From IMG/VR virus record IMGVR_UViG_3300035670_012130, positions 32,001 through 96,000 of that record: a stretch of 64,000 nt of DNA. One strand, given 5' to 3'. Below are positions 1 to 18,329 of this stretch, one piece after another. The translations under genes and the position numbers were made by a program. The stretch comes from a virus. How positions within the stretch are numbered: the stretch's first letter is position 1; each line of letters starts with the position of its first letter. The notes below the pieces were generated by a model. The model did no database searches, was not told where the DNA came from, and was given only the letters and a program-made list of their open reading frames with translations.

Positions 1-285
1 TGGAACTTTACCTCTAAGTATATCCCACAGCATTATCCAATCACTAATTTTTGCTTTCACTGGATCTTTGAATGCAGCTGGTTGATTTTTTTCAAAGAAA
101 TAATGACCAGACCATGCAAAAGGGTAAACAACAAATGGTGTTAGCAATAAGAACCAATAATATCCAAACTTCAAACAAAAAACAACCCACAAAATAGTCA
201 TGAATTGTCCTAATACATGTAATCTTCTGCAAATCTTATTTTGATGCAGAGTAAGATACATCTCATAATATTCTTTCATATTCAT
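1..285 (-). CDS. DUF962/Mpo1-like small membrane protein, 3' end runs off the window (not in ORF track)
   Basis: Manual translation from ATG 285, which overlaps the stop of the upstream gene (ATGA): MNMKEYYEMYLTLHQNKICRRLHVLGQ...YPFAWSGHYFFEKNQPAAFKDPVKAKISDWIMLWDILRGKVP. The YL..H.N...R.LH and AW.GH.FFEKN.PA motifs are typical of DUF962. Confidence 0.85.
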   Translation of the reverse strand, partial: MNMKEYYEMYLTLHQNKICRRLHVLGQFMTILWVVFCLKFGYYWFLLLTPFVVYPFAWSGHYFFEKNQPAAFKDPVKAKISDWIMLWDILRGKVP

Positions 286-1052
286 ATAGTACAAACTCCT
301 AATTTTTGAACAACTTTGGTAGCACATTCTTGAGCAAATTTAATTGCTAAGTCAATGTCATTAGTTCTTGAAAATTCACATGTCAATGCAGAGATGAATG
401 TATCTCCAGCGCCAGACATATCTTTGCAGTTGACTCTTTCAACTGGAAACATTTTACCTTGAAATTCACATCCTTTATCAGAATGAGTTATTATCAACTT
501 GTTATATAGATTTAAATTATCAATAGTGTGTTTGGTTTTATCGAATTCAACATGGTTTATCTTAATAAAATCACAAGAAGTGCACCATGTTCCTAAAATT
601 TTCTTAGTATCAAGAAAAACATTTTTATTATGATGACTGATTTCCCAAATATGATCTTCTGACAAAAACCCCTTACAATAATCACTTATTATTATAGAAT
701 CGTAATGTACTCCATCATAAAAATTGTCAATAATTTCTTCAATAACTTCAAAATTTAATGCAGAGACTTTTTGTTCTTCATCCACTCTTATCAGGAGACT
801 ATTAGTACGCTCATCTACTAATCTGGTCTTAACAATATTTTCTGGTTGAGTTATAAGAGTTACTTTTGCACCAATAGCTTCAATATTTGCTTTTACATTC
901 AGTGCCATACCACCATTTAATTTTGTTTCAATAGGATTGAATACTGGAGCTGGACCTTCTGGAGCTAATCTAGGTACATGTCCATATGTAAAAACATCAG
1001 TACAAGAATCTCCTATCACTAGAATGTTGATATGATTATATAATTCTTTCAT
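282..1052 (-). CDS. HldE/RfaE kinase-domain-like PfkB sugar kinase (heptose-7-phosphate kinase-like), no adenylyltransferase domain
   Basis: ILVIGDSCTD..YG...RLAPEGPAPV, GGMALNV, IISDYCKGFL and DMSGAGDTF motifs. Confidence 0.85.
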   Translation of the reverse strand: MKELYNHINILVIGDSCTDVFTYGHVPRLAPEGPAPVFNPIETKLNGGMALNVKANIEAIGAKVTLITQPENIVKTRLVDERTNSLLIRVDEEQKVSALNFEVIEEIIDNFYDGVHYDSIIISDYCKGFLSEDHIWEISHHNKNVFLDTKKILGTWCTSCDFIKINHVEFDKTKHTIDNLNLYNKLIITHSDKGCEFQGKMFPVERVNCKDMSGAGDTFISALTCEFSRTNDIDLAIKFAQECATKVVQKLGVCTI

Positions 1053-1558
1053 AATAATAGTGTATTTTTATCTCTTTCAGATAAAATTGGATTATCTGAT
1101 ATCCAATTTATACCTATTTTGGGATCAGACCAATAAACAGATTTTTGATCTTTCACATCAGGATAATCACCATCATAACTCCACTTATAGTGAAAAATAG
1201 CTTTATCACTCAGAACTAAATGGCCATTCAAAAATCCTGGAGGAACAAGTACGCTCAATTTTTCCTTACTATCAGCATCTAAAATAAAATCAGTCCAAGA
1301 TAAATATTCAGAACATTCTTTGTCAAAATTTACAATAACTAATTGAATTTTTCCATATAAACAAGTAATTAATTTCCACGATTTATCAGTATGCAAACCT
1401 CTCAATACATTTTTATTAGAAGTAGCTACCTTGTCATGATTGAAATTCAATGAAGCAGTGTCGCTGTCTTTCCATATGGTAAACAATTCACCACGTTCAT
1501 CAATAAATGAATCTTTGGTAAAAACTGTCACTCCGGAAAGACAATCAACTCTAGCCAT
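1049..1558 (-). CDS. rmlC: dTDP-4-dehydrorhamnose 3,5-epimerase family (cupin)
   Basis: DERG, NVLRGLH, VPPGFLNGH and W.DPKIGINW...NPILSERD motifs. Confidence 0.88.
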   Translation of the reverse strand: MARVDCLSGVTVFTKDSFIDERGELFTIWKDSDTASLNFNHDKVATSNKNVLRGLHTDKSWKLITCLYGKIQLVIVNFDKECSEYLSWTDFILDADSKEKLSVLVPPGFLNGHLVLSDKAIFHYKWSYDGDYPDVKDQKSVYWSDPKIGINWISDNPILSERDKNTLLL

Positions 1559-2720
1559 TTAATACCTCAAGAAGTTTGGTAATTTTTTCTTTTTCAAGCC
1601 CTGGATAATTGCCTATGTACCAAGAAAAATTATGTAAATGTTCAATATTTGGAAAGTTAGAAAAATCATTATAAATAGACTTGAAAAATGGTTGCCTCAT
1701 TTGATTTCCACCACCAGAAAGTCCACGTCTAAATTCAATTCCATTATTTCTAAGCTTTCTTTCAACTTCATTACGTTTTGTAAAATCAGCGTCTTTCAAG
1801 ATTACAATAAAAGCGTAGTTACAATTTCCTTCAGTATTTAAGGCGATATGATACTTTTCAGGATCTAAATTCGAGATAAATATATCAAAATTTTCTCTTC
1901 TTTCTTGATTTTTATTATCTAGTTTTTTGAGCTGTGAAAGTCCAATTACAGCATTAATTTCTGTGCTTCTAAAATTGTGTGCTGGACGTAAGAAAATAAA
2001 GTCAGGATTTAAATCAGGATTGTCCATTGCTATTGAAATCTTCATGGAATCACTAGTCATTTCTCTAGTCATTCCATGTGATCGTAATGCCCTGCAAATT
2101 TGATAAAACTCCCAATTATTAGTAGAAATCATCCCGCCTTCAATTGTGGACATATGGTGAGCAAAATAAAAACTGAAATTACTTGCGAATCCAAAATTAC
2201 CCACTTTACATCCTTGGAAAGTTGTGCCGTGAGATTCGCATACATCTTCAATTAGTAGAATATTTTTTTGTTCACAGATTTCTAAAAGCTCATCTGTAAG
2301 ACCATTGATACCTAACACATGTGTAAGAAAAATAGCTTTAGTATTTTCAGTAATTGCATCTTTCAACTTATCAATATCAAATGACAAATTGGTAAAATTA
2401 ACGTCAACAAAAACTAATTTATGACCAGCAAATAAGACGGAAGAAATGTCTGAAATCCAAGTTAAAGGTGGAACAATAATTTCACCTTCACCAATTAAAT
2501 GTGATATGGCAAGCATTGTTAATTCATTAGCTGATGCTCCTGAATTTACAAATAAATTATATTTTGTTCCAAGCCATTCGCCCCAAGACTTTTCAAATTC
2601 GGCAACCTTAGGTCCATTTGTCAATTTTGGAATTGCGTCTTGAGACAAAAAATCTATTACAGAATTTATATCTTCTTTGTCAATATTATCATTCATCAAT
2701 GGCAAGAAAAATTTATTCAT
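1551..2720 (-). CDS. DegT/DnrJ-fold PLP/PMP enzyme, ColD-type NDP-4-keto-6-deoxyhexose 3-dehydratase
   Basis: VNSGASAN, EDVCESHG, SFYFAHHMSTIEGGM (His at the Schiff-base Lys position) and RSHGMTR. Start placed at 2720, just after the upstream stop. Confidence 0.8.
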   Translation of the reverse strand: MNKFFLPLMNDNIDKEDINSVIDFLSQDAIPKLTNGPKVAEFEKSWGEWLGTKYNLFVNSGASANELTMLAISHLIGEGEIIVPPLTWISDISSVLFAGHKLVFVDVNFTNLSFDIDKLKDAITENTKAIFLTHVLGINGLTDELLEICEQKNILLIEDVCESHGTTFQGCKVGNFGFASNFSFYFAHHMSTIEGGMISTNNWEFYQICRALRSHGMTREMTSDSMKISIAMDNPDLNPDFIFLRPAHNFRSTEINAVIGLSQLKKLDNKNQERRENFDIFISNLDPEKYHIALNTEGNCNYAFIVILKDADFTKRNEVERKLRNNGIEFRRGLSGGGNQMRQPFFKSIYNDFSNFPNIEHLHNFSWYIGNYPGLEKEKITKLLEVLNG

Positions 2721-2721
2721 T

Positions 2722-3258
2722 TTATTTCTCGTTATAAAAATCGCCCCATTCAACTAAAATTGTCGGCCTATTGTCTGTACGCAAATATGCATATTGATAA
2801 GCTTCAAATATTTGATTAGGCTCATCCAATCTAATTATATCTACAAAATCACACATTGCTTTGAAACCACCTGTAAAATCAGCAATATGTTGATGTTGAG
2901 GATGTAATGGTCTTTGAGATCCAATCGATGTTCTTATGATGATTTTAGGCGTGTATCCACCATCAGACATAACTTTGATTTTATCTACATGATTTACAAG
3001 TTGATTAGCAGCAAGTAATAGAAAATTCCAACGAGGATATAGCGAAACTGGAACAGTGCCATTAAGTGCTATTCCCAATGTAATTCCCATTTGCATATCT
3101 TCATTTACAGGCATTTCTAAAAGTTTGCTTTTATCAATACCGCTAAGAGTATTTGTCATTGCAGTACCTGGATATTCAACAGCTTGACCAAGAAACAATG
3201 TGTCTTGTTGAGCACCAAGCCATTCCATAGATCTTTTTAATTCATCGAAATATTTCAT
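2722..3258 (-). CDS. Truncated TPP enzyme beta subunit (transketolase/PDH E1-beta pyrimidine-binding domain only)
   Basis: FLGQAV, EMPVNEDMQMG..LGIAL, FLLLAANQLVN, IIRT.IG....HPQHQH and PTILVE motifs; 178 aa with no C-terminal domain. Confidence 0.8.
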   Translation of the reverse strand: MKYFDELKRSMEWLGAQQDTLFLGQAVEYPGTAMTNTLSGIDKSKLLEMPVNEDMQMGITLGIALNGTVPVSLYPRWNFLLLAANQLVNHVDKIKVMSDGGYTPKIIIRTSIGSQRPLHPQHQHIADFTGGFKAMCDFVDIIRLDEPNQIFEAYQYAYLRTDNRPTILVEWGDFYNEK

Positions 3259-3863
3259 TAAAATTGGATCCTTTTTCCAGCTCCAGCATGTGGATATTTA
3301 GATTGATAACTGTAATAAATAATCTTTTTTTCGTTGCAATTGAATGCCAAAGTGTCAGAATTCCAAACTTTTCTAGTATCTGTGCAAACTGACTTGTTAT
3401 TGTCTTCAACTACAAATGTGATTGGTAAATCATGATTCAAGGCATATTTATAATTTTCAAAAAATGTACCTGTTTCTGAAGCCATATCACCAACAAAACA
3501 CCAAACATGATTTGTTTGATTTTTTCTTTTTATATCAAGTGCGACACCAGTGGCAATTGGGATGCTTCCAGTTACAATAGCTGAAGAATAAATGTTGTAA
3601 TCAGGATAGCAAAGTGTAATTGATTTTCCGCTAACTATATCTGCCATAAGGCGTTCTTGAGGAACGCCTTTGAGCAAACACTGGTAATGAGATCGCCAAG
3701 TGCAAAAAATCCAATCTTCATCTTTGACATTATTGAAAACTTCAATAATTTGCTTTTCATTACCATCGTAAAGATGAACTGGCGACTTGATTACTCCACT
3801 GTTGAATGTTTCAGCAACTTTTGTTTCAAAATCTACGAGTTCTTCGGGCGTATATTTTTTCAT
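3258..3863 (-). CDS. Short TPP enzyme alpha subunit (PDH E1-alpha-like)
   Basis: PVHLYDGNE, WRSHY..LLKG, SAIVTGSIPIATG and GDMA...FVVEDNN TPP-binding motif. Confidence 0.83.
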   Translation of the reverse strand: MKKYTPEELVDFETKVAETFNSGVIKSPVHLYDGNEKQIIEVFNNVKDEDWIFCTWRSHYQCLLKGVPQERLMADIVSGKSITLCYPDYNIYSSAIVTGSIPIATGVALDIKRKNQTNHVWCFVGDMASETGTFFENYKYALNHDLPITFVVEDNNKSVCTDTRKVWNSDTLAFNCNEKKIIYYSYQSKYPHAGAGKRIQF

Positions 3864-4819
3864 TTATTTAAGTAATTCTCTTGATACCATGCAACAGTTT
3901 TTTCAATACCTTCTTGAAAGGTAAATTGAGGCTGAAAACCCAATTCAGTTGTAATTCTTTCAGTGCTAACCATTCTAAAAGGAATGGTTGTAGGTTTAGA
4001 ATTATCCCAAACAATTTCAGGTGTTTTACCAGTAGCTAATAAAATCGAGTCTAAAATTTCACCAATTGTGATTGTTTTGCCCATTCCAACATTGTATGGT
4101 CTCATTGGAGTGCCTTTTTCAAGTACCAACAAAGCTGCATTAACAACATCTTCAACATACAAGAAATCTCTTACAACATCAGGACTACCCCAAGCTGTAA
4201 ATGGGTTTTCATCTGTAAGCACTCTGTTGATTAAAGCTGGAACAACATGACAGGTTTTGGTATCAAAATTATCATAAGGTCCAAAAATTGCTGTACCTCT
4301 AGTGAGCATAATTTCTAAGTCAGAAAATTTTGAAACATGCTCCATAAGCTTTTCACGGTATCTACGCATCCATCCATAGCCGTAATATGCTTTGTAAGGC
4401 TCATCGTCCCAATATTCTTCTTCAGTGATTGGATAACGTCTGTCTGGATATCCTGTTGAACTATTTAAGTCAAGGAATCTTTTTACGCCAGTCTTATTAC
4501 AAGCATCAAGCACATTTCCCAAAACATTAATGTTTTGAATAGAAATTTGTATATCAGTAGGGACAGTAGAAGGATGAGCAATATTTCCTCCACTGTGAAT
4601 GACATAATCAGCACCATCAACTAACTTGATACAATCATCCAAGTTTGTCAAATCACAAAATGGCATGACAGTAATATTTTCAACTTTTGTTTGCAAAGGT
4701 TTGTGATGAATGTGAGTAAAAACATTTGCACCACGCTTCACAAGCCCCTCAATATAATTGCTGCCTAAAAATCCACTACCACCAGTTACAACTACTTTTT
4801 TACCTTCAAAAAAACTCAT
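3860..4819 (-). CDS. Extended SDR, GDP-fucose synthase/ColC-like nucleotide-sugar reductase/epimerase
   Basis: TGGSGFLG, GPYDNF....HVVPALI, WG...VRDFLYVED; YGWMR at the YxxxK site. Confidence 0.8.
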   Translation of the reverse strand: MSFFEGKKVVVTGGSGFLGSNYIEGLVKRGANVFTHIHHKPLQTKVENITVMPFCDLTNLDDCIKLVDGADYVIHSGGNIAHPSTVPTDIQISIQNINVLGNVLDACNKTGVKRFLDLNSSTGYPDRRYPITEEEYWDDEPYKAYYGYGWMRRYREKLMEHVSKFSDLEIMLTRGTAIFGPYDNFDTKTCHVVPALINRVLTDENPFTAWGSPDVVRDFLYVEDVVNAALLVLEKGTPMRPYNVGMGKTITIGEILDSILLATGKTPEIVWDNSKPTTIPFRMVSTERITTELGFQPQFTFQEGIEKTVAWYQENYLNK

Positions 4820-4828
4820 TTTTTAACC

Positions 4829-5800
4829 TCAATGATTTACAAATACATTATAGCGCTGATCGATAGAATTTTTATTATTCTTAAACCATTCAGTTACTAT
4901 TTGAATTCCATCCGATAAAGATGTGCGAGACTTGATACCATAACTTTCTGCTCTTTCAGTAGACATGATTCTGATAGCATCTCCATTTGGTTTATCTGAC
5001 ATCCATTTGACTTCTAAATTTTTTCCTGAGTGTTTCACAACCATTTCAACCACCTCTTTGATTGTAAATCCTTTGCCAGATCCAAGATTAATAGGCTCAG
5101 TGACTCGTTTTTCAACACATTGAATCATAGCACTAGCTACGTCATCAGCAAAGATAAAATCTCTAATTGGAGTTCCATCTCCCCAAACTTCCAAAACATC
5201 ATTTTCTTGAGCTTTTCTAATTAGTGAAGGAACAACCATGGAATTAACTGGGTTGAAATTATCGTATTTTCCAAAAATATTAGCTGGTCTTACGATAGAA
5301 ATATTATTAGATCCATATTGAATTGCATATGCTTCAGCTTGCAATTCTCCTATTCTTTTAGCCCAGCCAGCAAACTTATCGTTTGGTGATGGAAAAGTTT
5401 TCCAAACGTCATCTTCGTAAAAAACATCTGCTGGAGAATACACACCAACCGAACTTGTATACAAATACCACTTTACATTAGTTTTTCTAGCAGCTTCCAT
5501 CATATTTGTGTTAAATTGAAGCATTGGAACCATAAAATCTGCTGGTTGCTCTGCGCAAGCTTTGGGTGATCCTTTGACTCCGATAATATTAAAAACATAA
5601 TCTTTATCTTTGCAAATTTCTTCACAAACATCCAAATATCTCAAGTCTCCTTTGGTGTACTTCACTTCAGGCTCAAGATCTGCAGGTTTATGCAAATCAG
5701 CAATTTCAACTTCTGCCCCAAGACTTAAGAGCTTTGAAACTAAAGCTCTTCCTACCATACCTGCTCCGCCAGTCACTAAAACTTTTTGGTTATTAAACAT
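4829..5800 (-). CDS. Extended SDR, GDP-fucose synthase-like paralog
   Basis: TGGAGMVG, RPANIFG.YDNF, VWGDGTPIRDFIF, KPNG; AGWAK lacks the catalytic Tyr. Confidence 0.8.
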   Translation of the reverse strand: MFNNQKVLVTGGAGMVGRALVSKLLSLGAEVEIADLHKPADLEPEVKYTKGDLRYLDVCEEICKDKDYVFNIIGVKGSPKACAEQPADFMVPMLQFNTNMMEAARKTNVKWYLYTSSVGVYSPADVFYEDDVWKTFPSPNDKFAGWAKRIGELQAEAYAIQYGSNNISIVRPANIFGKYDNFNPVNSMVVPSLIRKAQENDVLEVWGDGTPIRDFIFADDVASAMIQCVEKRVTEPINLGSGKGFTIKEVVEMVVKHSGKNLEVKWMSDKPNGDAIRIMSTERAESYGIKSRTSLSDGIQIVTEWFKNNKNSIDQRYNVFVNH

Positions 5801-5808
5801 TTTATTTC

Positions 5809-6747
5809 CTATAAATTGGTGAAATCTTTATTTTTGAAATTCGAAATCATTTTGTATGCGCTTAGAAGTTCTTGTATTCCAGCATCTAATGAATAATCGC
5901 AATACCATCCTGTTTTTTCAATCTTTTCATTTGAAACAATATAATTACGTTTATCAAAATCTTCTTTAAACTGTTCCTCAATGATAACTAAATTAGGAAC
6001 GTACTCTTTGACTTTTTGAGCGAGTTGAAGCTTTGACATATTTGCAGAAGTAAGGCCTACATTGAAAGCATTGTTGTTGCAAGTTTCATAATTTTCTATC
6101 AAATGAAGAAAAGCTTTTGCCACATCCCTGACATGAACATAGTTTCTCAAAAAATGTGATTCAAAAAGAACTAAAAATTCATCAGTGAAAGCTCTGTAAA
6201 CAAAGTCATTGACAAGTAGATCCATTCTTTGTCTGTAGGAAACTCCAAATACTGTAGCAAGTCTTAATGAAATTCCATTACCTGATTCTAAAACACGCTT
6301 TTCAGCATCGCATTTTGTTTTTGCATAAAGAGAAAGAGGATTGAATGGACTTTCTTCTGTGATGATTGTTTCAGAACTTCCATATTGAGAATTTGTATTA
6401 GGAACTAACAATTTCTGACTTGGCTGAATTATCTCAAGGATGTTTTTAATTTGTTGATAATTTACAGCAACTGTTAGATCTGGATCTTTTTTACACGCTG
6501 GCATTCCTACAATAGCAGCTAAAGGAATAACGATGTCATGAGTTTCTACCAGACCACTAAGAAGTTTGGTATCTCGCACATCGCCAACAATAAGATTGAA
6601 ATTTTTATTATGACAAAACTGAGTTAAGGATAACTGTTTGTATGTCAAGTTGTCTAAAACAGTAACTGAATAGTCTTTAGACAGTAAAACTTCAGTAAGA
6701 ATAGAACCAAGGTATCCAGCTCCACCTGTTATTAATACTTTTTTCAT
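5809..6747 (-). CDS. NAD-dependent nucleotide-sugar epimerase/dehydratase (extended SDR)
   Basis: TGGAGYLGS, LAAIVG.PAC, YAKTK and RLATVFG.S.R.R.DLLVN motifs. Confidence 0.85.
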   Translation of the reverse strand: MKKVLITGGAGYLGSILTEVLLSKDYSVTVLDNLTYKQLSLTQFCHNKNFNLIVGDVRDTKLLSGLVETHDIVIPLAAIVGMPACKKDPDLTVAVNYQQIKNILEIIQPSQKLLVPNTNSQYGSSETIITEESPFNPLSLYAKTKCDAEKRVLESGNGISLRLATVFGVSYRQRMDLLVNDFVYRAFTDEFLVLFESHFLRNYVHVRDVAKAFLHLIENYETCNNNAFNVGLTSANMSKLQLAQKVKEYVPNLVIIEEQFKEDFDKRNYIVSNEKIEKTGWYCDYSLDAGIQELLSAYKMISNFKNKDFTNL

Positions 6748-6755
6748 ATAAGATA

Positions 6756-6804
6756 ATTATACCAACGATTGATTTGCGATATAGTTTTATTTTGATGGTA
6801 TAAA
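6756..6804. promoter_or_regulatory. Divergent pair of -10-like boxes directly before two start codons
   Basis: Minus strand: TGG-TATAAT, 8 nt before ATG 6747. Plus strand: TGG-TATAAA (6799-6804), 6 nt before ATG 6811. Confidence 0.6.
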
Positions 6805-6810
6805 TTAGAT

Positions 6811-7599
6811 ATGAATGTGATAGTAAATTACAATTGGGGTGATAAACATACATTTTCTTTGTCCCACAAACTATATCTTGAAGGCCTTGCAAAGATCAAT
6901 TGTTATAAACTTATTATAGTTTATGATATGAGTGAAGAGACGATTGATAAACTAAAGACTATTTACGACCATGTTGAAGTCATACCAAAACCAGATTCAC
7001 ATTTCACTTCATTTTACACAATTTACAAAACTGTAGAAAAATATTGCTCTCATTGTGATTTGTTTTTATATACTGATTCACATGATGTTATTTTTCAATC
7101 AGATCCTTTTGAATATCTTTCTAAATTTGATGAAGAAATTTTCTTAACTTCTCCAGGTTTTAAAGTAAAGGATCAATGGCCAGACCGAAATTGGCATGAA
7201 TATTTTAATAAATCAACTAGCAAAAAAGTAGATTTCTGGGAAGATAAAGTTTTGAATGGTGGAATAACTGCTGGAAAAGTTCAAGCAATACTCAATTTCT
7301 ATGCATTTGCAACTGCTAATTTAAACAGAAATGGTTGTCATATTGTAGATCAAACCGTATATTTATATTTTTATCATCTGATGAAAGACAGAGGTAATGT
7401 TAGAATTTTTGATACCAGAAATGATAATTTTGTGTATCACTGTCAAAATGAGCATTTTTTTGATCGCCCAGAAAATCCCAATGTTATAAACGGAAAAATA
7501 TACACTGAGTCTGGTGAGTTATATTGTATTTGGCATCAATGGGATGATATTGGATACTCGGCTAATTTAGATGAGAAAGGTAATGTTTACATTAAATGA
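6811..7599 (+). CDS. Putative GT-A-fold glycosyltransferase (PLOD-GT-like D-x-x-D-V-x-F-Q-x-DPF family), paralog 1
   Basis: FLYTDSHDVIFQSDPF, VLNGGITAG, DQ and WHQWD motifs; sugar-cluster context. Confidence 0.6.
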   Translation: MNVIVNYNWGDKHTFSLSHKLYLEGLAKINCYKLIIVYDMSEETIDKLKTIYDHVEVIPKPDSHFTSFYTIYKTVEKYCSHCDLFLYTDSHDVIFQSDPFEYLSKFDEEIFLTSPGFKVKDQWPDRNWHEYFNKSTSKKVDFWEDKVLNGGITAGKVQAILNFYAFATANLNRNGCHIVDQTVYLYFYHLMKDRGNVRIFDTRNDNFVYHCQNEHFFDRPENPNVINGKIYTESGELYCIWHQWDDIGYSANLDEKGNVYIK

Positions 7600-8309
7600 A
7601 TATAATATTTGCGGTTATAAGAAATCCAGAATTTGTGATAAATAATAAATATACCTCATTCATTAATTCACTTAAAAATTTGTCTGAGACATCTAAAATT
7701 GTTTTAATAAATGCAAGTTCAAAAGAAATTAAACTAGATCGTGCTAATATTGAAGTTTTGAATACTACTGCAATGGCTTCAGATTTAAACATTTATGGAG
7801 CAATTTCAGGATACTTGAATCAGTACCAAAATGACGAAAATGATTATGTTGCGATCTGTAACGTAGAAAATATATTGTTTACTCGTGATCCTTTATTGTT
7901 TCTAAAGCATTTTGATAAAGATCTATATTTTTATAGTTTGAGCCATATCAATAACGAAAGTACTCAAATAAAATCAGATTATGAGAATTTTGTAAAAACC
8001 TGTAATTTTTATATGGGAAATGATTTCGATTCTTTATCAATTGGTACTCATTTCTTTGGCGGTAAATTATCAGCTATGAAAGCATTGTTATTAACATTGT
8101 TTTTGAATGTCAACAGAAACTCAGCCAATACAATTACCTCTCAAGCTGTTTTGTCTTATGTTCACAAGCACTTTTATAATTTATTCAAAGTTCAAATGTT
8201 TACAAATCAATTTTGCATGCTTGTAGATGATAAAAGCAAGGCTGAGTCTATTTTAGACGATGAAGAATTATCTAAAAAACAATATGCAGTAATATACTTT
8301 ACCAGCTAA
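7596..8309 (+). CDS. Degenerate paralog of the GT-A-like protein (probable pseudo-glycosyltransferase)
   Basis: CNVENILFTRDPL aligns with TDSHDVIFQSDPF, HFFGGK with GGITAGK, and SQAV with DQTV; HQWD is absent. Confidence 0.5.
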   Translation: MNIIFAVIRNPEFVINNKYTSFINSLKNLSETSKIVLINASSKEIKLDRANIEVLNTTAMASDLNIYGAISGYLNQYQNDENDYVAICNVENILFTRDPLLFLKHFDKDLYFYSLSHINNESTQIKSDYENFVKTCNFYMGNDFDSLSIGTHFFGGKLSAMKALLLTLFLNVNRNSANTITSQAVLSYVHKHFYNLFKVQMFTNQFCMLVDDKSKAESILDDEELSKKQYAVIYFTS

Positions 8310-8700
8310 TTTCCCAATCTTTGAAATCAGCTGCTAAACAATCAATTTTATAATCTTTTCTACCGCCAACGACTTCTTGAATTTTGTTTTTGGCGGTATT
8401 TCTTATTCCATTTAATCCATGTGTCAATTCGAGATTATTCCCATCTTTAATGCCTTTGCGATAATTGGTTTCATTATGCCAAATATGTAAATTCATCTGA
8501 GAAAGAACTACTATAGCTCTAATTACTTGAGCATCAACTATTGCGTTATTTTCGTCTAAATGTGCTTGTATATCATGAACTATAGATGCTATTTCTTCAG
8601 CATATTCACTTTTATGATCTGTAATAAAAACTTCCTTAAGTTGAACTATAGAAAGTCTGTCAATTAATTCCGAAAGAGTTGGTAAATATTTGCGATTCAT
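8299..8700 (-). CDS. DUF6165/DUF4254-like small helical protein
   Basis: LSELIDRLSIVQLK...NLHIWHNE...LNGIRNTAKNKI pattern. Confidence 0.6.
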   Translation of the reverse strand: MNRKYLPTLSELIDRLSIVQLKEVFITDHKSEYAEEIASIVHDIQAHLDENNAIVDAQVIRAIVVLSQMNLHIWHNETNYRKGIKDGNNLELTHGLNGIRNTAKNKIQEVVGGRKDYKIDCLAADFKDWEISW

Positions 8701-8707
8701 ATCTTGA

Positions 8708-8735
8708 ATTATACCTTGCTAAATGCACGTATAAT
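8708..8735. promoter_or_regulatory. Divergent pair of TATAAT boxes before starts 8700 (-) and 8742 (+)
   Basis: Minus-strand TATAAT at 8713-8708 is 7 nt from its ATG; plus-strand TATAAT at 8730-8735 is 6 nt from its ATG. Confidence 0.65.
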
Positions 8736-8741
8736 ATTTTT

Positions 8742-9695
8742 ATGAAAATTGTATACATAACAGGTTGTTTAGGATTTATTGGAAGACATGTGGCTCTATC
8801 TTGTCTGGAAAAGGGGTGGTATGTATATGGAATTGACAAATGTACTTACGCATCTGACATTAATTTATTGAGTGAATTTAATAAATATAAAAATTTCAAC
8901 TTTCAGCAAATTGATATCTGTTCTTTAGATAGGTTGGTAGATTGTGATTATTTCATAAACGTAGCAGCAGAAACGCATGTAGATAATTCTATTAGAAAAA
9001 GTGATGATTTTATTCATTCAAATATTAATGGAGTTTACAATATATTAGAATTACTTAAAAACTACAAAAAAGAAGGCTATGTAACACCTACATTTTTACA
9101 TTTTAGCACTGATGAAGTTTATGGTGATATTACTGATGGAGCGCATATAGAAACTGATTTATTAAGGCCTTCTAATCCTTATTCAGCTACCAAAGCAGCA
9201 GCTGATCAACTCATCACTGCTTGGTCTAGAACTTATGATTTGCCATATGTTATTGTTAGACCCACTAATAATTATGGATGCGGTCAATATGTTGAAAAGC
9301 TAATTCCCAAAGCCTGTAAATTTTTATCATTAGGAAGGAAAATTCCATTACACAACAATGGAACACCAACCCGAAATTGGCTGCATGCTAAAGATACAGC
9401 TAAAGCAGTAATGACTATAGTTGAATCAGATGTAAAAAATGAAATTTATAATATTGCTGGTGGATTTGAACAATCTAACCTTGATACTGTTCACAAAATT
9501 ATCAAAGAGTTTTACCCAGGCAGTGTCTTTGAAACAGAAGATTACATAAATTTCAATGTTCATAGACCAGGACAAGATGTAAGATATGCTCTTGATGATT
9601 CGAAGATAAGAGCATTGGGTTGGAAGCCTGAATGTGTGTTTGATGAAGAAATTAAAGAAATAGTAAAATACTATAAAGAAAATTTTGTATGGTAA
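8742..9695 (+). CDS. rmlB: dTDP-glucose 4,6-dehydratase
   Basis: TGCLGFIG, AAETHVDNS, STDEVYG, PSNPYSATKA, NNYG..Q..EKLIP and RPGQD.RY motifs; start moved to MKIVYITG. Confidence 0.9.
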   Translation: MKIVYITGCLGFIGRHVALSCLEKGWYVYGIDKCTYASDINLLSEFNKYKNFNFQQIDICSLDRLVDCDYFINVAAETHVDNSIRKSDDFIHSNINGVYNILELLKNYKKEGYVTPTFLHFSTDEVYGDITDGAHIETDLLRPSNPYSATKAAADQLITAWSRTYDLPYVIVRPTNNYGCGQYVEKLIPKACKFLSLGRKIPLHNNGTPTRNWLHAKDTAKAVMTIVESDVKNEIYNIAGGFEQSNLDTVHKIIKEFYPGSVFETEDYINFNVHRPGQDVRYALDDSKIRALGWKPECVFDEEIKEIVKYYKENFVW

Positions 9696-9702
9696 TTATC
9701 AA

Positions 9703-10719
9703 ATGAAAGTAAATGATTACATTGCTGAAAGATTGTATCAAGAGGGTATTAGACACGTTTTTGGCATAATGGGTGGTGGAGCTGCTGGTATAAATGATGG
9801 TTTTATCAGAAGCAAAATTGAATACATTTGTTTTCATCATGAACAAGGTGCTTCGAATGCAGCTTTGGCTTATAGCAAGTCCAAAAATCAGATTTCAGTT
9901 GTTAACCCTACCACTGGATGCGGAGGATTAAATTGTGTAACTTCTCTAGTGTCAGCCTTTCAAGATAGTGTGCCTTTATTATTTATATCAGGTAATTATC
10001 GACTTCAAGAGACTACCAGATATCTTAATAAAACTAAAAACATAAGCTTGAGAAAATTTGGTTTACAAGAGCATGATATTATTGAACATGTCAAGTATGC
10101 TACAAAGTTTTTTGCATTTATAGAAGACAAGAACGATGTTCCAATGGTCCTTGAAAAAGCAATTCAAAAATGTGTTAATGACAGACCTGGACCTTGCTGG
10201 ATTGATATTCCTTCTGATATTCAAACCCAAGAAATCGATAATAGTTTTTTATTTCCAAATATTGAAACTGAAAAAAAAATTTTAAACAAAACTTATATTG
10301 AAGAATTTTTCAGTATTTTAAATAATAGCAAGAGACCATTGATTTTGTTAGGTTCAGGGATAAATATTTCTGATTGTAAACAAGAAGTAATTGATTTTAT
10401 TGAATTGAATCAAATTCCAACAGTCAGTACATTTTCTGCAAAAAATATTTTGCCTTTTGATCACAAATTAAGTATTGGCACTATTGGAATAAAAGGAAGT
10501 AGAGCTGGAAATTTTGCTTTACAAAATTGTGATCTGTTAATTGCTTTAGGTTGTTCATTAAATTCATCACATACGGGATATGATAAAAAACTATTCTCAC
10601 CAAAATCCAAAAAAATCTTGGTAAATATTGATGAGAATGATTATTTGAAAAATAATGTAGATTTTGATCTATTTATAAAAAAAGACTTAAAAGGCTTCTT
10701 AAATGACATCAAGAATTGA
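9703..10719 (+). CDS. Acetolactate-synthase-like (YerE-like) TPP enzyme, N-terminal and central domains
   Basis: VFGIMGGG, HHEQGAS.AA, TTGCGGLN, QDSVPLLFISG, RPGPCWIDIP and GSRAGNFALQNCDLL motifs. Confidence 0.85.
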   Translation: MKVNDYIAERLYQEGIRHVFGIMGGGAAGINDGFIRSKIEYICFHHEQGASNAALAYSKSKNQISVVNPTTGCGGLNCVTSLVSAFQDSVPLLFISGNYRLQETTRYLNKTKNISLRKFGLQEHDIIEHVKYATKFFAFIEDKNDVPMVLEKAIQKCVNDRPGPCWIDIPSDIQTQEIDNSFLFPNIETEKKILNKTYIEEFFSILNNSKRPLILLGSGINISDCKQEVIDFIELNQIPTVSTFSAKNILPFDHKLSIGTIGIKGSRAGNFALQNCDLLIALGCSLNSSHTGYDKKLFSPKSKKILVNIDENDYLKNNVDFDLFIKKDLKGFLNDIKN

Positions 10720-11458
10720 CTGGATTGAAAAGTGTAATTATTGGAAAGAAAAATGGCCTTTGTATACAGATTGTTTCATTGATGACAATGATGGAATAAA
10801 TTTATATACAATAATTGAGACTATAAATAATTGCTCTAACACCAAAGACATTTTGATGACTGACGCTGGTTCTGCAAATTATGTTTGTTGCCAAAATTTA
10901 AAATTAAAAAAAGATCAAAAATTTATTTTTCCTGCAGCTCAAGGTGATATGGGATTTTGTATACCTGCTTGTGTTGGAGCCCAATTGGCAAATCCTGACC
11001 ATAATATAATTGCAATTATTGGAGATGGCAGTTTTCAAACAAATATTCAGGAACTTGCTTCTATAAAAGCAATAAAATCTAATTCTAAAATTGTAGTTTT
11101 GAACAATGAAGGCTATCTAAGTATTAGAAACACACAAAGTAAATTTTTTAATGGAAATGTCTATGGTGAATCTAAAAGTACAGGCTTATGGTTTCCTGAT
11201 CTTAAAAAAATTGCTACAGCATATGAATTCGAATATTTCAGAATCGAAAGTAATAAAGATTTAGTTGATATTTTTGAAAACGAACTTCACAGTGAAAAAC
11301 CAATTATTTTTGACATCAAATGCAAATATTCTCAAGATGTAATACCAACTTCAGCTTTAAAAATAGATAAAAATTCAGGTAAAAAAATTCAATGTGGCTT
11401 AGATGACATGTATCCTTTCATGAGCGATGAAGAGCATTCAAAAGAGATGTTATATTGA
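10703..11458 (+). CDS. Acetolactate-synthase-like TPP enzyme, C-terminal TPP-binding domain (split partner)
   Basis: DAGSA, QGDMGF..PA..GA and GDGSFQTNIQEL...LNNEGYLSIR.TQ motifs. Confidence 0.85.
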   Translation: MTSRIDWIEKCNYWKEKWPLYTDCFIDDNDGINLYTIIETINNCSNTKDILMTDAGSANYVCCQNLKLKKDQKFIFPAAQGDMGFCIPACVGAQLANPDHNIIAIIGDGSFQTNIQELASIKAIKSNSKIVVLNNEGYLSIRNTQSKFFNGNVYGESKSTGLWFPDLKKIATAYEFEYFRIESNKDLVDIFENELHSEKPIIFDIKCKYSQDVIPTSALKIDKNSGKKIQCGLDDMYPFMSDEEHSKEMLY

Positions 11459-12249
11459 TGAATATACTAATTACTGGTGGAGAAGGCTATGTTGCCTCAA
11501 ACTTATATAAGAACCTTGAATCAAGTTATAATTTAACTACAATTTCAAGAAAAGATTTAGATTTGACTATTTCTTCAGAGGTAAATGCTTTTTTTGAAAA
11601 TAAATTTTTCGACATTGTTTTTCATTGTGCTGTATGTGGAGGTAGCAGGTTAAAATTAGATAGTTATTATGAAATGGATAATAATTTGAAAATGTATTAT
11701 AATCTACATCAATTAAAAGATAAGCATTTCAAAAAATTTATCACATTTGGTTCAGGTGCAGAAACACACTCATCTCATACTCCTTATGGATTGAGCAAAC
11801 ATGTAATAGCTCAATCCATCTCTGAAACTGAGAACTTTTATAATCTTGTAATTTTTGCTCTTTTTGATTCAAGTGAATGGGAATCTAGATTTATAAAAGC
11901 AAATATTTTACGTTACATAAATAAAGATTCTATAATTATTCACCAAGATAAATACATGGATTTTTTTTACATGAATGATTTTATAAAAGTAATAAAATAC
12001 TATATTGAAAATCAAAGCTGCCCAAAATCAATTAATTTTTCATACGGTGAATCAACAAAACTTTCAGACATTGCAAAAAAAATCAACAATCTAAATAATT
12101 ATAAAGTTGATATTTGTATAGAAAATCAAGAAATTGCACCAAGCTATTGTGGAGATTATAATTTGGATGCATTGAATATTAATTTCGATGGCTTATACAA
12201 TGGCATTGAAAAAGTTTTTGATGAAATAAATTCTGCAAATTACAAATAA
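11458..12249 (+). CDS. Extended SDR nucleotide-sugar reductase (YerF/Abe-like candidate)
   Basis: TGGEGYVA, FGSGAE and YGLSK motifs; ATG overlaps the upstream TGA. Confidence 0.75.
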   Translation: MNILITGGEGYVASNLYKNLESSYNLTTISRKDLDLTISSEVNAFFENKFFDIVFHCAVCGGSRLKLDSYYEMDNNLKMYYNLHQLKDKHFKKFITFGSGAETHSSHTPYGLSKHVIAQSISETENFYNLVIFALFDSSEWESRFIKANILRYINKDSIIIHQDKYMDFFYMNDFIKVIKYYIENQSCPKSINFSYGESTKLSDIAKKINNLNNYKVDICIENQEIAPSYCGDYNLDALNINFDGLYNGIEKVFDEINSANYK

Positions 12250-12259
12250 TAAAAATAAG

Positions 12260-12265
12260 TATAAT
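12260..12265 (+). promoter_or_regulatory. -10 box 6 nt before ATG (leaderless-type)
   Basis: TATAAT-gtaaat-ATG at 12272. Confidence 0.6.
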
Positions 12266-12271
12266 GTAAAT

Positions 12272-12928
12272 ATGTCTAGATTTGATACAGATTTAATTTT
12301 CAAGATTGATGAAAAATGGTTTTGGCGTAAAGATGATTACAATTTGAAGACCTACAATGGCCTTTCAAGTGAGACAGATCTACTCAAAGTTGTTCAACCC
12401 TATCTCAAAGGTAAAAAAGTCGTAGTTCAAGCTGGTGGAAATTGTGGTATGCAAGTTGTTAAATTTGCAGAATTTTTTGATACAGTTTACACTTTTGAAC
12501 CTGATCCTATTAATTTTCATTGTTTAGTTAACAATTTGCCATATGATAATGTAATAAAATTCCAGTGTTGTCTGGGCGATTCTCATAAAATGGTTTCAAT
12601 GACTACTTTGCCCAATGAAATAGGTGGTTTTTATGTCAATGAAAATTTGGGTACAACTCCTACACTTAGAGTTGATGATTTGAATTTAACTTACTGTGAT
12701 TTTTTACAGCTTGATGTTGAGGGTTATCAACTTTATGCACTTAAAGGTGCTATAAACACAATCAAGAAATTCCATCCAGTTATTAGTGTTGAATTTGATT
12801 GGGCTTTTAGATATAATCACAGCACATCTGATATTAGAAATTTTTTAGCAAGCTTAGGCTACGAAAAAGTCGAGTCTTACACAACTGATCATATTTATAT
12901 TTATAAAAATCTTTCATTTAGTTTATGA
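12272..12928 (+). CDS. FkbM-family SAM-dependent methyltransferase
   Basis: VVVQAGGNCG, FEPDPINF and RVDDL...CDFLQLDVEGY...ALKGA..TI.K..PVI.VE motifs. Confidence 0.85.
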   Translation: MSRFDTDLIFKIDEKWFWRKDDYNLKTYNGLSSETDLLKVVQPYLKGKKVVVQAGGNCGMQVVKFAEFFDTVYTFEPDPINFHCLVNNLPYDNVIKFQCCLGDSHKMVSMTTLPNEIGGFYVNENLGTTPTLRVDDLNLTYCDFLQLDVEGYQLYALKGAINTIKKFHPVISVEFDWAFRYNHSTSDIRNFLASLGYEKVESYTTDHIYIYKNLSFSL

Positions 12929-13821
12929 AAATATTAATTACAGGTGCTGGTGGTTTTTTAGGATCAAATATTTGCAATTTGCTATCTAAAAAGCATGAAA
13001 TTTTAGCTATATCTAGAAATTTTGAAAAACTAAATAGAGAAAGTAATATAATCTGTCATAAATTAGATATGGCAGATTATAATCTTTTAAAAGAACAAGT
13101 GCAAAATTTTATTCCAGAAGTAGTAATTCATTGCGCATGGATGGGCGGAAATTCTTCTAGAGACATTAATGAACTGTGGCAAGCAGATAACATCATTTAC
13201 AGCAATGAACTTCTTAAGTTTTGCTCATCTCTAGGGATTAGACATTTTATAGGATTTGGATCTTCTGCTGAGTATGGAAATCATTTATGCAAACTAAATG
13301 AACTCACAGTTTGTAAACCTACAACCATGTACGGTATTACTAAGAATTCATTTAGACACATAGCAGAGAATTATTGTGAATCTAATAATATCAATTTCAG
13401 TTGGGTAAGACCAGTTTTTACTTATGGTCCAAGAGATGTTGAGACAAGACTAATTCCTAAAGCTATTATATCTTTTTTGAAAAACCAAGATCTTGTATTG
13501 AATAAATGTTCAGCCGTAGTAGATTATTTATTTGTTGAAGATTTTTGTAAAGCCATACAATGCATTGTTGAACAAGAAATAATTGGAGATTTTACCATAT
13601 CTTCTGATGATGAAATTAATATAAAAAAATTAGTTGAAATGATTTATGAAAAAATTAATTCTAAATCTAATTTAATTTTTGATGAAAGTAAACCTGATTA
13701 CAGCCATCAATATGTTTGTGGTTCATCAGAAAAATTAAAATCTTTGTCTGATTGGCGCCCGCTGATTTCTTTAGAGAATGGTTTAGATAAAACCATTTCC
13801 TACTTTGAAAAGTTCGTATAA
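12925..13821 (+). CDS. Extended SDR (CDP-abequose/paratose synthase-like reductase)
   Basis: TGAGGFLGS, HCAW, GSSAEYG, YGITK and DYLFVEDF motifs. Confidence 0.8.
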   Translation: MKILITGAGGFLGSNICNLLSKKHEILAISRNFEKLNRESNIICHKLDMADYNLLKEQVQNFIPEVVIHCAWMGGNSSRDINELWQADNIIYSNELLKFCSSLGIRHFIGFGSSAEYGNHLCKLNELTVCKPTTMYGITKNSFRHIAENYCESNNINFSWVRPVFTYGPRDVETRLIPKAIISFLKNQDLVLNKCSAVVDYLFVEDFCKAIQCIVEQEIIGDFTISSDDEINIKKLVEMIYEKINSKSNLIFDESKPDYSHQYVCGSSEKLKSLSDWRPLISLENGLDKTISYFEKFV

Positions 13822-13822
13822 T
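13817..13822 (+). promoter_or_regulatory. -10 box 6 nt before ATG 13829
   Basis: cgTATAATatttttATGaa is an identical 19-mer to 8728-8746. Confidence 0.65.
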
Positions 13823-13828
13823 ATTTTT

Positions 13829-14638
13829 ATGAATAATCTTTTGCTAAATTTTCTAGATGGTAATCGCATACTCGAATCAATTGATGCAGATATATACCTT
13901 GCATCATTATCAAAACACAAAACATTTAAAAAACTTGTATGTGTTTACAATGTTGATTCCGAGCAAATCAAAAAACTTGAGAAGTATTATGATTATGTAA
14001 TACCAGTTGAAAAAGGATTAACACCAATAAACTTTTGCTATTTAGCTTATTATAATTGGCTTTGTGAAAATGGCAAAGATTTCAAGTATGTAATGCATTG
14101 CGATATGCGTGATGTTGTAATTCAAAAAGATCCATTTGAATTTATGGAAAATCATCCAGATAAAGAACTATTTTTAGTTTGTGAAGGAATGAAAATTAAA
14201 GAGAATGATTGCAACAAAATGTGGCATGACTGGGTTTTAAATACAATAATTTACAATAAAGAAACCTACGATGATTCTTATGTTTTGAATGGAGGAACAT
14301 ATGGTGGGAAAACAAATGCTTTTCTAAATTACTGTACATTGATACTCACAGCAATGAATAGAAAGTTCCATTATATTATTCCAGATCAAGCTATGTTGGG
14401 TTATTTATATAGACAATTAAGTCAAAATCCAAATGTTATGCTAACTCATCCTATGACAGATACTTTTTGTGCAACTGGCGAGGCAATAAAAAGAGATAAC
14501 GTTGATGTTTATTTTGACGGTACAAATGTCTGCAATCAATTAGGGGAAAAGTATTGTTTATTCCATCAATGGGATAGAACTGAGGTGGCTGAACTGTTAA
14601 GAAATAAGTTTAAAAATACTTTGTCATTCAGCCTTTAA
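13829..14638 (+). CDS. Putative GT-A-fold glycosyltransferase, paralog 3
   Basis: HCDMRDVVIQKDPF, VLNGGTYGG, DQAM and FHQWDR motifs; clear paralog of 6811-7599. Confidence 0.62.
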   Translation: MNNLLLNFLDGNRILESIDADIYLASLSKHKTFKKLVCVYNVDSEQIKKLEKYYDYVIPVEKGLTPINFCYLAYYNWLCENGKDFKYVMHCDMRDVVIQKDPFEFMENHPDKELFLVCEGMKIKENDCNKMWHDWVLNTIIYNKETYDDSYVLNGGTYGGKTNAFLNYCTLILTAMNRKFHYIIPDQAMLGYLYRQLSQNPNVMLTHPMTDTFCATGEAIKRDNVDVYFDGTNVCNQLGEKYCLFHQWDRTEVAELLRNKFKNTLSFSL

Positions 14639-15222
14639 CCTAATTCTCGTTCTATATCAATATCAAGATCTGCAGCTGTTTCAGGTTTAGCTTCATTTTT
14701 AGTAGCTAAAATAAGTTGAATAGTTTCAAACTCTTTCATACTCAAGTTAGAAAATTCATCTTTACTCATAGAAACTAAACCTCGTGTCATATAGTCTATT
14801 TCAACAACTAGTGGTGGCACGGGGTAAGTTTCTGTATCATTTGGGTTGTAATATTTTTTTGTCGCAACATAATAAAAGTTAGCTTCATCAGCATTCAAAT
14901 ATAGATAATTCTGATATTCAACCCACAACTTTTCTACAATCTGATAGTCTAGCTTTTCTAATAATGAGATTTCGAATTCAGGCATATAATCTATGTTAGT
15001 ACTTGTGTCATACGCTCTTAATATTGCTAAATTTAAAATCTCTCTTTTTTCAAATTCAGAATTTTGATAAACTATATTATCTTTTTTTCTAAATGATTTG
15101 GCATCTATCAACAAGCCTTCTTTCCAAGTTATTTCTCTAACTATAAACTTTACAGTATCTATCGTGATGATATGAGTTCTGTTTGATTTAATTTTATCGT
15201 AAAATTCAATAAATTCTTTCAT
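14635..15222 (-). CDS. Hypothetical protein, possible tail assembly chaperone
   Basis: Follows a tube-like gene; F.VREITW N-terminal motif and acidic composition. Confidence 0.4.
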   Translation of the reverse strand: MKEFIEFYDKIKSNRTHIITIDTVKFIVREITWKEGLLIDAKSFRKKDNIVYQNSEFEKREILNLAILRAYDTSTNIDYMPEFEISLLEKLDYQIVEKLWVEYQNYLYLNADEANFYYVATKKYYNPNDTETYPVPPLVVEIDYMTRGLVSMSKDEFSNLSMKEFETIQLILATKNEAKPETAADLDIDIERELG

Positions 15223-16463
15223 TATAAAAATTCTGATACTCTAGTATTTGATAAACCATTAAAAGCTGTAAATTCTGTCAATCTTGCAGTAAAATTATAT
15301 TCAATAAAATATCCAGAACCAGGACTAATTGTTATTGTAGGTTGTTGCCAATCTACATTTTTCATACTGTAGAAAAATACACTTCCAAAGTACAAGGTCA
15401 AAGCAGATGCATTTGTTTGAATAAATCCATAATTTTGAGGACTAAATAGTTTTAATGATCCAGTAACTCTTCTATTGCTTAATGATGCAAATCTTGGTCC
15501 AGCAATATCATAAAATTCGTACAAATTATTTCCAAATGAGTAACCAGGATAGGTGAACGTAAAGTCTATAGATTGTTGAATTGACAAAGACATGTTGACG
15601 ATTTTATGCACTGGCATACTATTTGAATTGTAGGAATTTTGAACAGCTTTGGCAAAATCTTTAAAAGCATTATTTCCTGTAAATAAGCCTGGATAAAAGG
15701 CGCAATCAGAAAGATTTATTGCTCTATACTTGTCTTGAAAATTATTTGATTCATCAGTATTTAGTTGATTATCCAATTCGTTTATTGTCTTCATTTTTAT
15801 ATAATTGTTATTTAAAAATGGTCTATAAACAGTAATATTATCTGGAGATATGACAGATCTACCTCCGACTAACGAGCATGAAATTTCTACATCACCAAGT
15901 TGATTTAAGCCATCTACGCTTATTTGAAAATTACTTACAAAAGCAGGCCCAAAAGATTTGTGTGTTGGAATACTTGAGCAAAAAAGTAACGGATAAAGCG
16001 GTATATAAGAAGCTCTATACATTATAATTTCTGCAGAATATTGTTGATTTACATTAGTAGATAATATTGGGTTAAAAGAAAAGTTTCCTGAATATTGATA
16101 ATTTGTAAATGTTGGATGATTTAATGCAGCTAGACCTGAAAAATTTTGAATTGGTTGATATACATTGTCGCCAGCATTATCAGTGAAATTAGAACAATAT
16201 AATGGTTTATATTCGTTAGAAAATCTTTTAGTAAAATAAAACCCTTGTGAAGCTCGATTTGACATATTTGCGCTTAGCAAATATAAATCCCATAAATGAG
16301 ATCTTGAACCAGTGGTGTTTTTGGCAACTCTGTATCCACCAAATGATTTTAACTGTTGAGTATATAAACCTGTCGATGAAAAAGGAGCCAGTTCGCAAAC
16401 ATATATATTATGTCCTGATGCTGGGTAAACTCCATTTATGACATTGTTTATAATATCTGGCAT
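15222..16463 (-). CDS. Tail-tube-like protein
   Basis: beta-rich; VSNFQISV...VEISCSL, IVNMSLSIQQ, RRVTGSLKL and PTITI...IEYNFTA pattern typical of tail tube folds. Confidence 0.5.
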   Translation of the reverse strand: MPDIINNVINGVYPASGHNIYVCELAPFSSTGLYTQQLKSFGGYRVAKNTTGSRSHLWDLYLLSANMSNRASQGFYFTKRFSNEYKPLYCSNFTDNAGDNVYQPIQNFSGLAALNHPTFTNYQYSGNFSFNPILSTNVNQQYSAEIIMYRASYIPLYPLLFCSSIPTHKSFGPAFVSNFQISVDGLNQLGDVEISCSLVGGRSVISPDNITVYRPFLNNNYIKMKTINELDNQLNTDESNNFQDKYRAINLSDCAFYPGLFTGNNAFKDFAKAVQNSYNSNSMPVHKIVNMSLSIQQSIDFTFTYPGYSFGNNLYEFYDIAGPRFASLSNRRVTGSLKLFSPQNYGFIQTNASALTLYFGSVFFYSMKNVDWQQPTITISPGSGYFIEYNFTARLTEFTAFNGLSNTRVSEFL

Positions 16464-18322: not shown

Positions 18323-18329
18323 ATAAAAC

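Follow-up and report, generated by a model that had tools for sequence, protein, structure and literature searches.

The window, by which we mean the whole stretch of 64,000 nucleotides analysed here, corresponds to bases 32001-96000 of a 106,125-bp viral contig (IMG/VR record IMGVR_UViG_3300035670_012130; 32.7% G+C). On its plus strand two genes for unrelated sugar-tailoring enzymes end in the same five residues, LSFSL, and this shared C-terminal tail is our subject. The first gene encodes an FkbM-family S-adenosylmethionine (SAM) methyltransferase of 218 amino acids that ends in YKNLSFSL (12272..12928; positions are those of the window unless given as genome positions), and the second a glycosyltransferase of retaining type and GT-A fold, 269 amino acids long, that ends in KNTLSFSL (13829..14638) and is the last gene of a nucleotide-sugar island. 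Between them sits a plus-strand gene for a nicotinamide adenine dinucleotide (NAD)-dependent epimerase/dehydratase (12925..13821; PF01370, E = 2e-38), which has no such tail and ends in ...YFEKFV.

The methyltransferase gene closes with aaa aat ctt tca ttt agt tta TGA (protein end ...HIYIYKNLSFSL), its tail occupying 12911..12925 and its stop codon overlapping the ATG of the epimerase gene, and the glycosyltransferase gene closes with aaa aat act ttg tca ttc agc ctt TAA (protein end ...RNKFKNTLSFSL), with the tail at 14621..14635, both on the plus strand. Four of the five tail codons differ between the two genes, and the residue before the shared pentapeptide is N in the methyltransferase (NLSFSL) and T in the glycosyltransferase (TLSFSL). 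Outside the tail BLASTP detects no similarity between the proteins. Judging by the amino-acid composition of the contig, 0.0023 protein pairs with an identical C-terminal pentapeptide are expected, which rules out a chance origin of the shared ending. A repeat or regulatory element at the DNA level is ruled out as well by the differing codons and by the many DNA versions of the tail in related phages described below. We also rejected a constraint from overlapping genes as the cause of the tail, as the neighbours overlap the stop codons only: the ATGA shared by the methyltransferase and epimerase genes demands that the last methyltransferase codon end in A, and the glycosyltransferase gene and the convergent gene behind it overlap by 4 bases.

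A preliminary description of this DNA, made from its letters alone, had reported the common ending, had placed the match at the peptide level rather than in a DNA duplication and had called the two enzymes unrelated. All of this is confirmed, since both endings are read directly in the sequence, the tails are written in different codons here and in many versions among relatives, and the proteins have different folds and no BLASTP similarity beyond the tail. Two details of that description did not hold. It gave each gene a -10 box of its own, to which no weight can be attached because 26 sigma-70-like sites occur in 11300-15400 against 26.4 in shuffled sequences. It also started the glycosyltransferase at TTG 13805, while ATG 13829 is the likeliest start because the homologues are 266-269 amino acids long and begin with MNNLL or MKNLL.

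The assignment of the methyltransferase to the FkbM family follows from both sequence and fold: PF05050 is matched at 50.1 bits, above its gathering cut-off of 22.7, and the AlphaFold2 model (predicted local distance difference test, pLDDT, of 90) has the FkbM protein 2py6 as its best match in the PDB. For the 269-residue protein no Pfam glycosyltransferase family scores above its cut-off, its profile finds no PDB relatives at the sequence level and a search of the annotated phage collection gave no match; the sub-threshold matches are to DUF7780 and, weakly, to the phrog_1579 glycosyltransferase. Its AlphaFold2 model, built on 30 homologues (mean pLDDT 88.8), shows a GT-A Rossmann-like fold, and the closest solved structures (Foldseek, E ~1e-7) are BoGT6a, alpha-1,3-GalT, glycogenin and A64R of Paramecium bursaria chlorella virus 1 (PBCV-1), all retaining enzymes of GT6/GT8 type. 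With VIA-align the closest structures are alpha-1,3-GalT and human LH3, the latter in its glycosyltransferase domain (Z 16-17, root-mean-square deviations 3.3-3.7 over 205-216 residues). D92 and D95 (D-x-R-D) are invariant in the 30 glycosyltransferase sequences and are candidates for an acidic donor/metal motif of the DxD type. A second GT-A-like protein lies earlier in the island (6811..7599, plus strand; weak Pfam matches to GT_PLOD and Nucleotid_trans); by BLASTP it is 30% identical to the tailed glycosyltransferase, which justifies the label of paralogue that the preliminary description had used, and it is tail-less, ending in ...KGNVYIK.

In both models the tail lies beyond the end of the fold. 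The last strand of the methyltransferase spans residues 206-211 and is followed by coil at 212-218, with pLDDT below 50 at 216-218, while the last helix of the glycosyltransferase spans 252-263 and pLDDT falls below 50 at 267-269. Both tails are thus predicted to be unstructured, low-confidence extensions on confidently modelled folds.

The relatives of these enzymes come from uncultured phages, mostly of freshwater metagenomes judging by the contig names, and were collected as cluster representatives from a collection of 5.8 billion proteins. By the pattern [LIMFV]-x-F-x-[LIVMF]-COOH, 99 of 106 full-length glycosyltransferase representatives, down to ~42% identity, carry the tail. It is also found in 41 of the 56 methyltransferase relatives with at least 52% identity, and in a single one of 60 more distant ones. 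Counting the last residue as 0, Phe at -2 is invariant in all tails of both families (141/141), with L/M at -4 and I/L at 0; the glycosyltransferases have L 88, M 8 and F 3 times at -4 and I 59 and L 37 times at 0. Positions -3 and -1 of the glycosyltransferase tail are variable and mostly polar, and the glycosyltransferases have T/K/G at -5 and N/S at -6, the methyltransferases E/S/N/K and K/E/Q. Over the related loci compared, the tail is encoded in 21 distinct DNA versions in the glycosyltransferase and 15 in the methyltransferase, using TTT and TTC for Phe, TTA, TTG, CTT and CTA for Leu, and TCN and AGY for Ser. Since so many DNA versions encode it, selection must act on the tail peptide.

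The tail is not a general property of either family. Within the glycosyltransferase clade itself P0106-P0109 lack it, as does L035, which ends in NSFSLF. Four methyltransferase relatives with 62-71% identity (P0142, P0149, P0152 and P0155) end ~6 residues earlier, after a conserved ...SYTSDxIFxY strand, and so do all more distant FkbM proteins. A profile search over 1.84 billion representatives returned 1994 members of the wider glycosyltransferase family, which ends directly past the HQWDRT...helix, and the tail occurs in the top clusters alone. By sequence comparison, then, the tail is a clade-specific modular add-on to two unrelated folds, and we regard the motif as real, selected and restricted to this phage lineage. 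Further tagged proteins, to which the preliminary description looked for support, did not appear: no third open reading frame (ORF) with such an ending exists in the whole 106-kb contig. In the largest relative (316 kb, CheckV 88% complete) the pattern is carried by the glycosyltransferase and two other products, a 101-residue hydrophobic ORF and a 315-residue protein that ends in IEIDFSL and has no Pfam match; ~1.2 matches are expected by chance.

A second FkbM family of 298 amino acids was encountered in another variant of the island (L024:5438-6334), where the protein ends in LPLVQFTL. Its homologues from the phage lineage end in LPL[LI]EF[TSY][ILM]-COOH, and the bacterial homologues run on as LPLLEC.P.... 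This family may be a third carrier of the tail, or its pattern may be the last strand of the fold.

The position of the tail on the glycosyltransferase calls to mind the GT6 enzymes, in which the C-terminal segment is a mobile lid, basic and polar in nature, that acts in cis and is found family-wide. Residues 1-250 of the model match alpha-1,3-GalT 127-360 and GTA/GTB 114-346, so that the last helix and the tail come to lie where the mobile lid of alpha-1,3-GalT and GTA/GTB is, and both tails are predicted to be flexible, as a lid would be. The tail might therefore fold back as an active-site lid or acceptor strand, and be alike in both enzymes because they handle the same acceptor. We regard this as rather unlikely. 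The tail differs from the GT6 lid in being hydrophobic, clade-specific and common to a methyltransferase; it lacks the basic residues with which the lid contacts the donor diphosphate, and most members have no basic residue in it at all. Moreover, the wider glycosyltransferase family, the close methyltransferase relatives named above and the 30% paralogue of the same island all do without the extension, intramolecular packing hardly accounts for one pattern of five residues in two unrelated folds, and a lid on the glycosyltransferase leaves the methyltransferase tail unexplained.

Instead, the strict C-terminal position, the alternating hydrophobic residues, the invariant Phe, the flexible linker and the two unrelated carriers within one lineage argue for a linear motif that binds in trans. 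We think it somewhat probable that the tail is a short motif by which the acceptor-directed enzymes dock on one common partner, most plausibly a glycan acceptor of the virion. The motif is hydrophobic-x-Phe-x-(Leu/Ile)-COOH, carried on a flexible extension of 5-7 residues that two unrelated enzymes have gained. Three conserved hydrophobic side chains (L/M, F and I/L) and the free carboxylate would enter a groove of the partner, probably as an added beta-strand, and glycosyl transfer and methylation would thereby be brought to one site. Such a tether is suggested by the nature of the carriers, which should work on the completed glycan or on the acceptor and not, like the soluble enzymes of the island, on nucleotide-sugar precursors; the untailed enzymes of the island are those of the precursor pathways together with the GT-A paralogue.

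The tailed genes also go together in their distribution. The tailed methyltransferase is seen only beside the tailed glycosyltransferase, save on contigs that end too soon, and ~70 other phage loci with FkbM relatives possess neither of the tailed genes. Natural fusions are a separate line of evidence for joint action of the two activities: in three distant glycosyltransferase relatives (P0361, P0362 and P0393) the same chain begins with a class I SAM methyltransferase domain (Methyltransf_23/11/25). The preliminary description had taken the LSFSL ending for a tag that recruits both enzymes to a common platform. Its conservation despite codon turnover, its modularity, the predicted disorder, the restriction to one lineage and the fusions all favour a tag of this kind; its binding in trans, and the identity of the partner, we infer. 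Docking is accordingly well motivated as an explanation, though unproven.

Several observations weigh against this explanation. The methyltransferase tail is at times degenerate (SLTSVL, SLNSSL) where the glycosyltransferase tail is intact, and the two tails may be under differing constraint. The catalytic lid of the GT6 enzymes lies at the equivalent C-terminal position, which makes a cis role possible for the glycosyltransferase tail. In one relative (G003) no phage tail module follows the island, and the evidence that suggests glycosylation of the virion consists of gene position and analogy of fold. The absence of co-variation at -3 and -1 in 11 tail pairs from the same contigs is neutral, lending docking no support.

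The surroundings of the two genes bear on what the partner might be. The nucleotide-sugar island spans ~21 kb, from the capsid gene to the tailed glycosyltransferase (genome 25877-46638, of which 1..14638 falls in the window), and starts just past the major capsid gene (genome 24946-25800; phrog_2522 at 3.6e-68). By Pfam it contains an RmlB-like dehydratase, RmlC, two DegT-type aminotransferases, three thiamine diphosphate (ThDP) systems, HpcH aldolases, several short-chain dehydrogenases/reductases and a PfkB kinase. Its content varies among ~20 related contigs, in which the tailed glycosyltransferase is invariably the last gene, and it has the capsid gene on one side and, in most relatives, the phage tail genes on the other. 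Behind it, on the minus strand, begins a conserved convergent module (14635-20780) whose first gene (14635..15222; 195 amino acids) has no Pfam or PHROG match. The same arrangement is found in most related contigs, where the module encodes proteins of 195, ~413, 128, ~498 and 816 amino acids, none of which receives a name from PHROGs or Pfam. Two paralogues of 217 and 218 amino acids in the head module (genome 23412-24911) are conserved in the lineage as well.

The partner we favour, as a tentative possibility, is a virion protein or glycan acceptor whose gene lies next to the island, because the island lies between head and (in most relatives) phage tail genes, because the fold relatives of the tailed glycosyltransferase include enzymes that glycosylate proteins (LH3, glycogenin and PBCV-1 A64R), and because glycosylation of virions is known in chloroviruses and mycobacteriophages. 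For instance, mycobacteriophage glycosyltransferases modify capsid and tail-tube subunits, according to Freeman et al. 2023 as cited in PMC12619734. Those phages belong to another group and employ another sugar pathway. We know of no shared tail on the mycobacteriophage glycosyltransferases. PBCV-1 offers another parallel, as its multidomain protein A064R couples a glycosyltransferase to a methyltransferase tailoring the same capsid glycan. Its first domain, A64R (2p72, 2p73, 2p6w), is among the fold matches and is likewise a virus-encoded GT-A enzyme of retaining type. In A064R, however, one chain carries both activities, as it does in P0361, P0362 and P0393, while in the present lineage they reside in separate proteins with a common tail. 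The virion version of the platform suggested by the preliminary description thus stays the most plausible one, on grounds of gene position and analogy.

A more specific form of the same idea takes encapsulins as its model. Encapsulin targeting peptides are short, C-terminal and carried by unrelated enzymes, and bind an HK97-fold shell protein encoded nearby (PMC8346489). The likeness lies in the two unrelated tailed enzymes and in an island just past a major head gene, the latter known from its match to phrog_2522. By analogy, the tail could be a loading or docking peptide for a head protein of the phage, either its major capsid protein, presumably of HK97 type, or a neighbour of it; during assembly the head would thus serve as the scaffold on which the variable glycan of the island is attached and methylated, and the enzymes might be carried in the virion. 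The consensus of the encapsulin peptides, SDGSLGIGSLKRS or TVGSL (PMC8346489), is not matched by the tail L-x-F-x-[LI]-COOH, and we judge this form unlikely. With an enzyme complex or the glycosyltransferase itself as partner, one could understand that the methyltransferase dispenses with its tail more readily, but such a partner seems to us fairly improbable.

The preliminary description had named a sliding clamp as the other possible platform. The tail would then dock both enzymes on the phage or host beta clamp, and the methylated glycan would be put on newly replicated DNA. T4 offers a model for such docking, as gp43, gp33 and gp55 dock on the clamp gp45 through C-terminal motifs. A DnaN-like clamp is indeed present on the contig (genome 804-1961; PF02768 1.3e-6, PF00712 2e-4), clamp homologues are found in the records of three of five relatives, and phage enzymes of GT-A fold that glycosylate DNA have been reported (bioRxiv 10.1101/2023.12.21.572611), which gives this explanation a precedent. 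The clamp-binding motifs of T4 and of bacteria (QL[SD]LF, QLVLGL; PMC3716654) are short hydrophobic peptides, often C-terminal, through which unrelated proteins reach one docking site, and the C-terminal L-x-F-x-L of the tail is loosely like the Pol IV-type QLVLGL.

The details of the tail speak against a clamp. The tail has no conserved Gln at -5 or -6 like that of the clamp motif (PMC3716654), and neither is there the adjacent Leu-Phe of QL[SD]LF nor the Gly for the bend of the Pol IV-type QLVLGL. Where the clamp motif puts an adjacent Leu-Phe or L-G-L into subsite 1, the Phe at -2 and the Leu/Ile at 0 of the tail are separated by S, V, N or K, never by Gly, a geometry that may or may not suit the subsite. 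Furthermore, the carriers are sugar-tailoring and not DNA enzymes, and the island stands among late structural genes and makes branched or deoxy sugars typical of surface glycans. No hydroxymethylase of the thymidylate-synthase (ThyA) family, by which hydroxymethyl-pyrimidines could be supplied for glycosylation of DNA, was found in four records, one of them 88% complete; a search for Tet/JBP gave no match, but its control was silent too.

The proteins of this lineage that belong to the clamp-using kind in T4 carry a different tail. The sigma-like factor of the present contig (phrog_351; L045:2972-3538 in genome positions, outside the window), two genes past the DnaN-like clamp, ends in ...ILGKDFLFD, and in relatives the DnaE-like polymerase ends in LLSDELFD or LISDDLFD and the sigma factor in LLGDDFLLD (L054:2460-5714, L055:2809-6105, L216:1495-2058). 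Among the 334 ORFs of the 316-kb relative, these two proteins are the only ones with an ending of the ...LFD type. Because the adjacent Leu-Phe of QL[SD]LF is present and the carriers are of the right kind, this ending is a better candidate for a clamp motif than LSFSL; it looks like a T4-style clamp-binding tail of the polymerase and a late sigma factor, on a clamp of bacterial type. The clamp version of the platform is weakened by this second tail, by the missing Gln and by the lack of a ThyA-family hydroxymethylase in the 88%-complete relative. We find it improbable that the tail works in this way, and a phage beta clamp as its partner equally so.

Some further observations concern the same part of the genome. 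In two relatives (G002 and G003; L049 and L050) the clamp match contains one in-frame TGA each, with the annotated ORFs starting at TTG shortly after; this may be a start-site effect only. Before the clamp gene, at L045:283-867 (genome 283-867), lies an ORF cut by the start of the contig that matches phrog_1211, a 2-aminooxy adenylosuccinate synthetase (PurZ-like; 2e-26). The homologues of this ORF in relatives are full-length at 331 amino acids and likewise stand before the clamp gene, and its sequence hints at 2-aminoadenine DNA.

Another way to read the endings is that basic residues followed by a hydrophobic tail (RNKFKN-TLSFSL in the glycosyltransferase, YK-NLSFSL in the methyltransferase) hold the transferases at the inner face of the membrane, near a lipid-linked glycan, and the limitation of the tail to enzymes expected to act on an acceptor would fit such targeting to a membrane or lipid carrier. 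We consider this quite improbable, as the invariant Phe and the strict C-terminal position suggest a specific pocket rather than generic insertion into the membrane, and an amphipathic anchor would need more than five residues. Moreover, the paralogous GT-A protein has no tail, and no polyprenyl-phosphate transferase, flippase or polymerase was found among the island ORFs scanned, from which a few small ORFs were left out.

A degron or stability signal, through which a host protease or adaptor would degrade or protect both enzymes together, would likewise explain a signal at the very end of the chain. A hydrophobic last residue at the extreme C-terminus is typical of C-terminal degrons, and the tail has both this location and such a residue; its pattern also fits a class II PDZ ligand. 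In four phage records, however, no PDZ domain (PDZ_2, PDZ_6) was found, the polar residues at -1 and -3 are unlike tags of the LAA type, and a degron gives no reason why just these two enzymes should need the tail. We hold this role to be scarcely credible, and a host protein as the docking partner to be very doubtful too.

The phage itself is large: since the relatives reach 316 kb, the 106-kb contig is a fragment of a jumbo-phage genome. The 'moraphage' lineage of PMC12619734 is a different one and T4-like. A few other genes of the contig deserve mention. Within the island, two overlapping ORFs (window 9685-11458, plus strand) of 344 amino acids (N and M domains) and 251 amino acids (C domain) together make up a split ThDP enzyme of acetolactate-synthase type, and an intact copy of 595 amino acids is present earlier in the island (L046:10223-12010). 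The Mu-like portal protein (L045:14918-17290 in genome positions) carries a C-terminal nuclease-like domain (DUF559 / REase_MTES_1575 by Pfam). In the convergent module, the 413-residue protein (window 15222-16463, minus strand) has V-S-E-F within its last 4-8 residues in most relatives, with endings such as RVSEFL, LVSEFHIS, LVSEFFI and RVSEFIL.

Shared terminal peptides that gather unrelated enzymes are familiar from sliding clamps, the tails of single-stranded DNA-binding protein (SSB), encapsulins and microcompartments. A shared terminal docking peptide is therefore a known principle, met here on phage glycan-tailoring enzymes, and in the literature searched we found no description of this motif or of such a peptide on enzymes of that kind. 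If the partner is a clamp, the tail would suggest that DNA is hypermodified in a new way. If it is a virion protein, the tail would offer a direct approach to particle glycosylation with highly variable sugars in large aquatic phages, by which they probably escape adsorption blocks or grazing, and enzymes could be brought to a capsid with a tag of five residues. With either partner, the motif can serve as a bait for tests in a lineage of which no member has been cultured.

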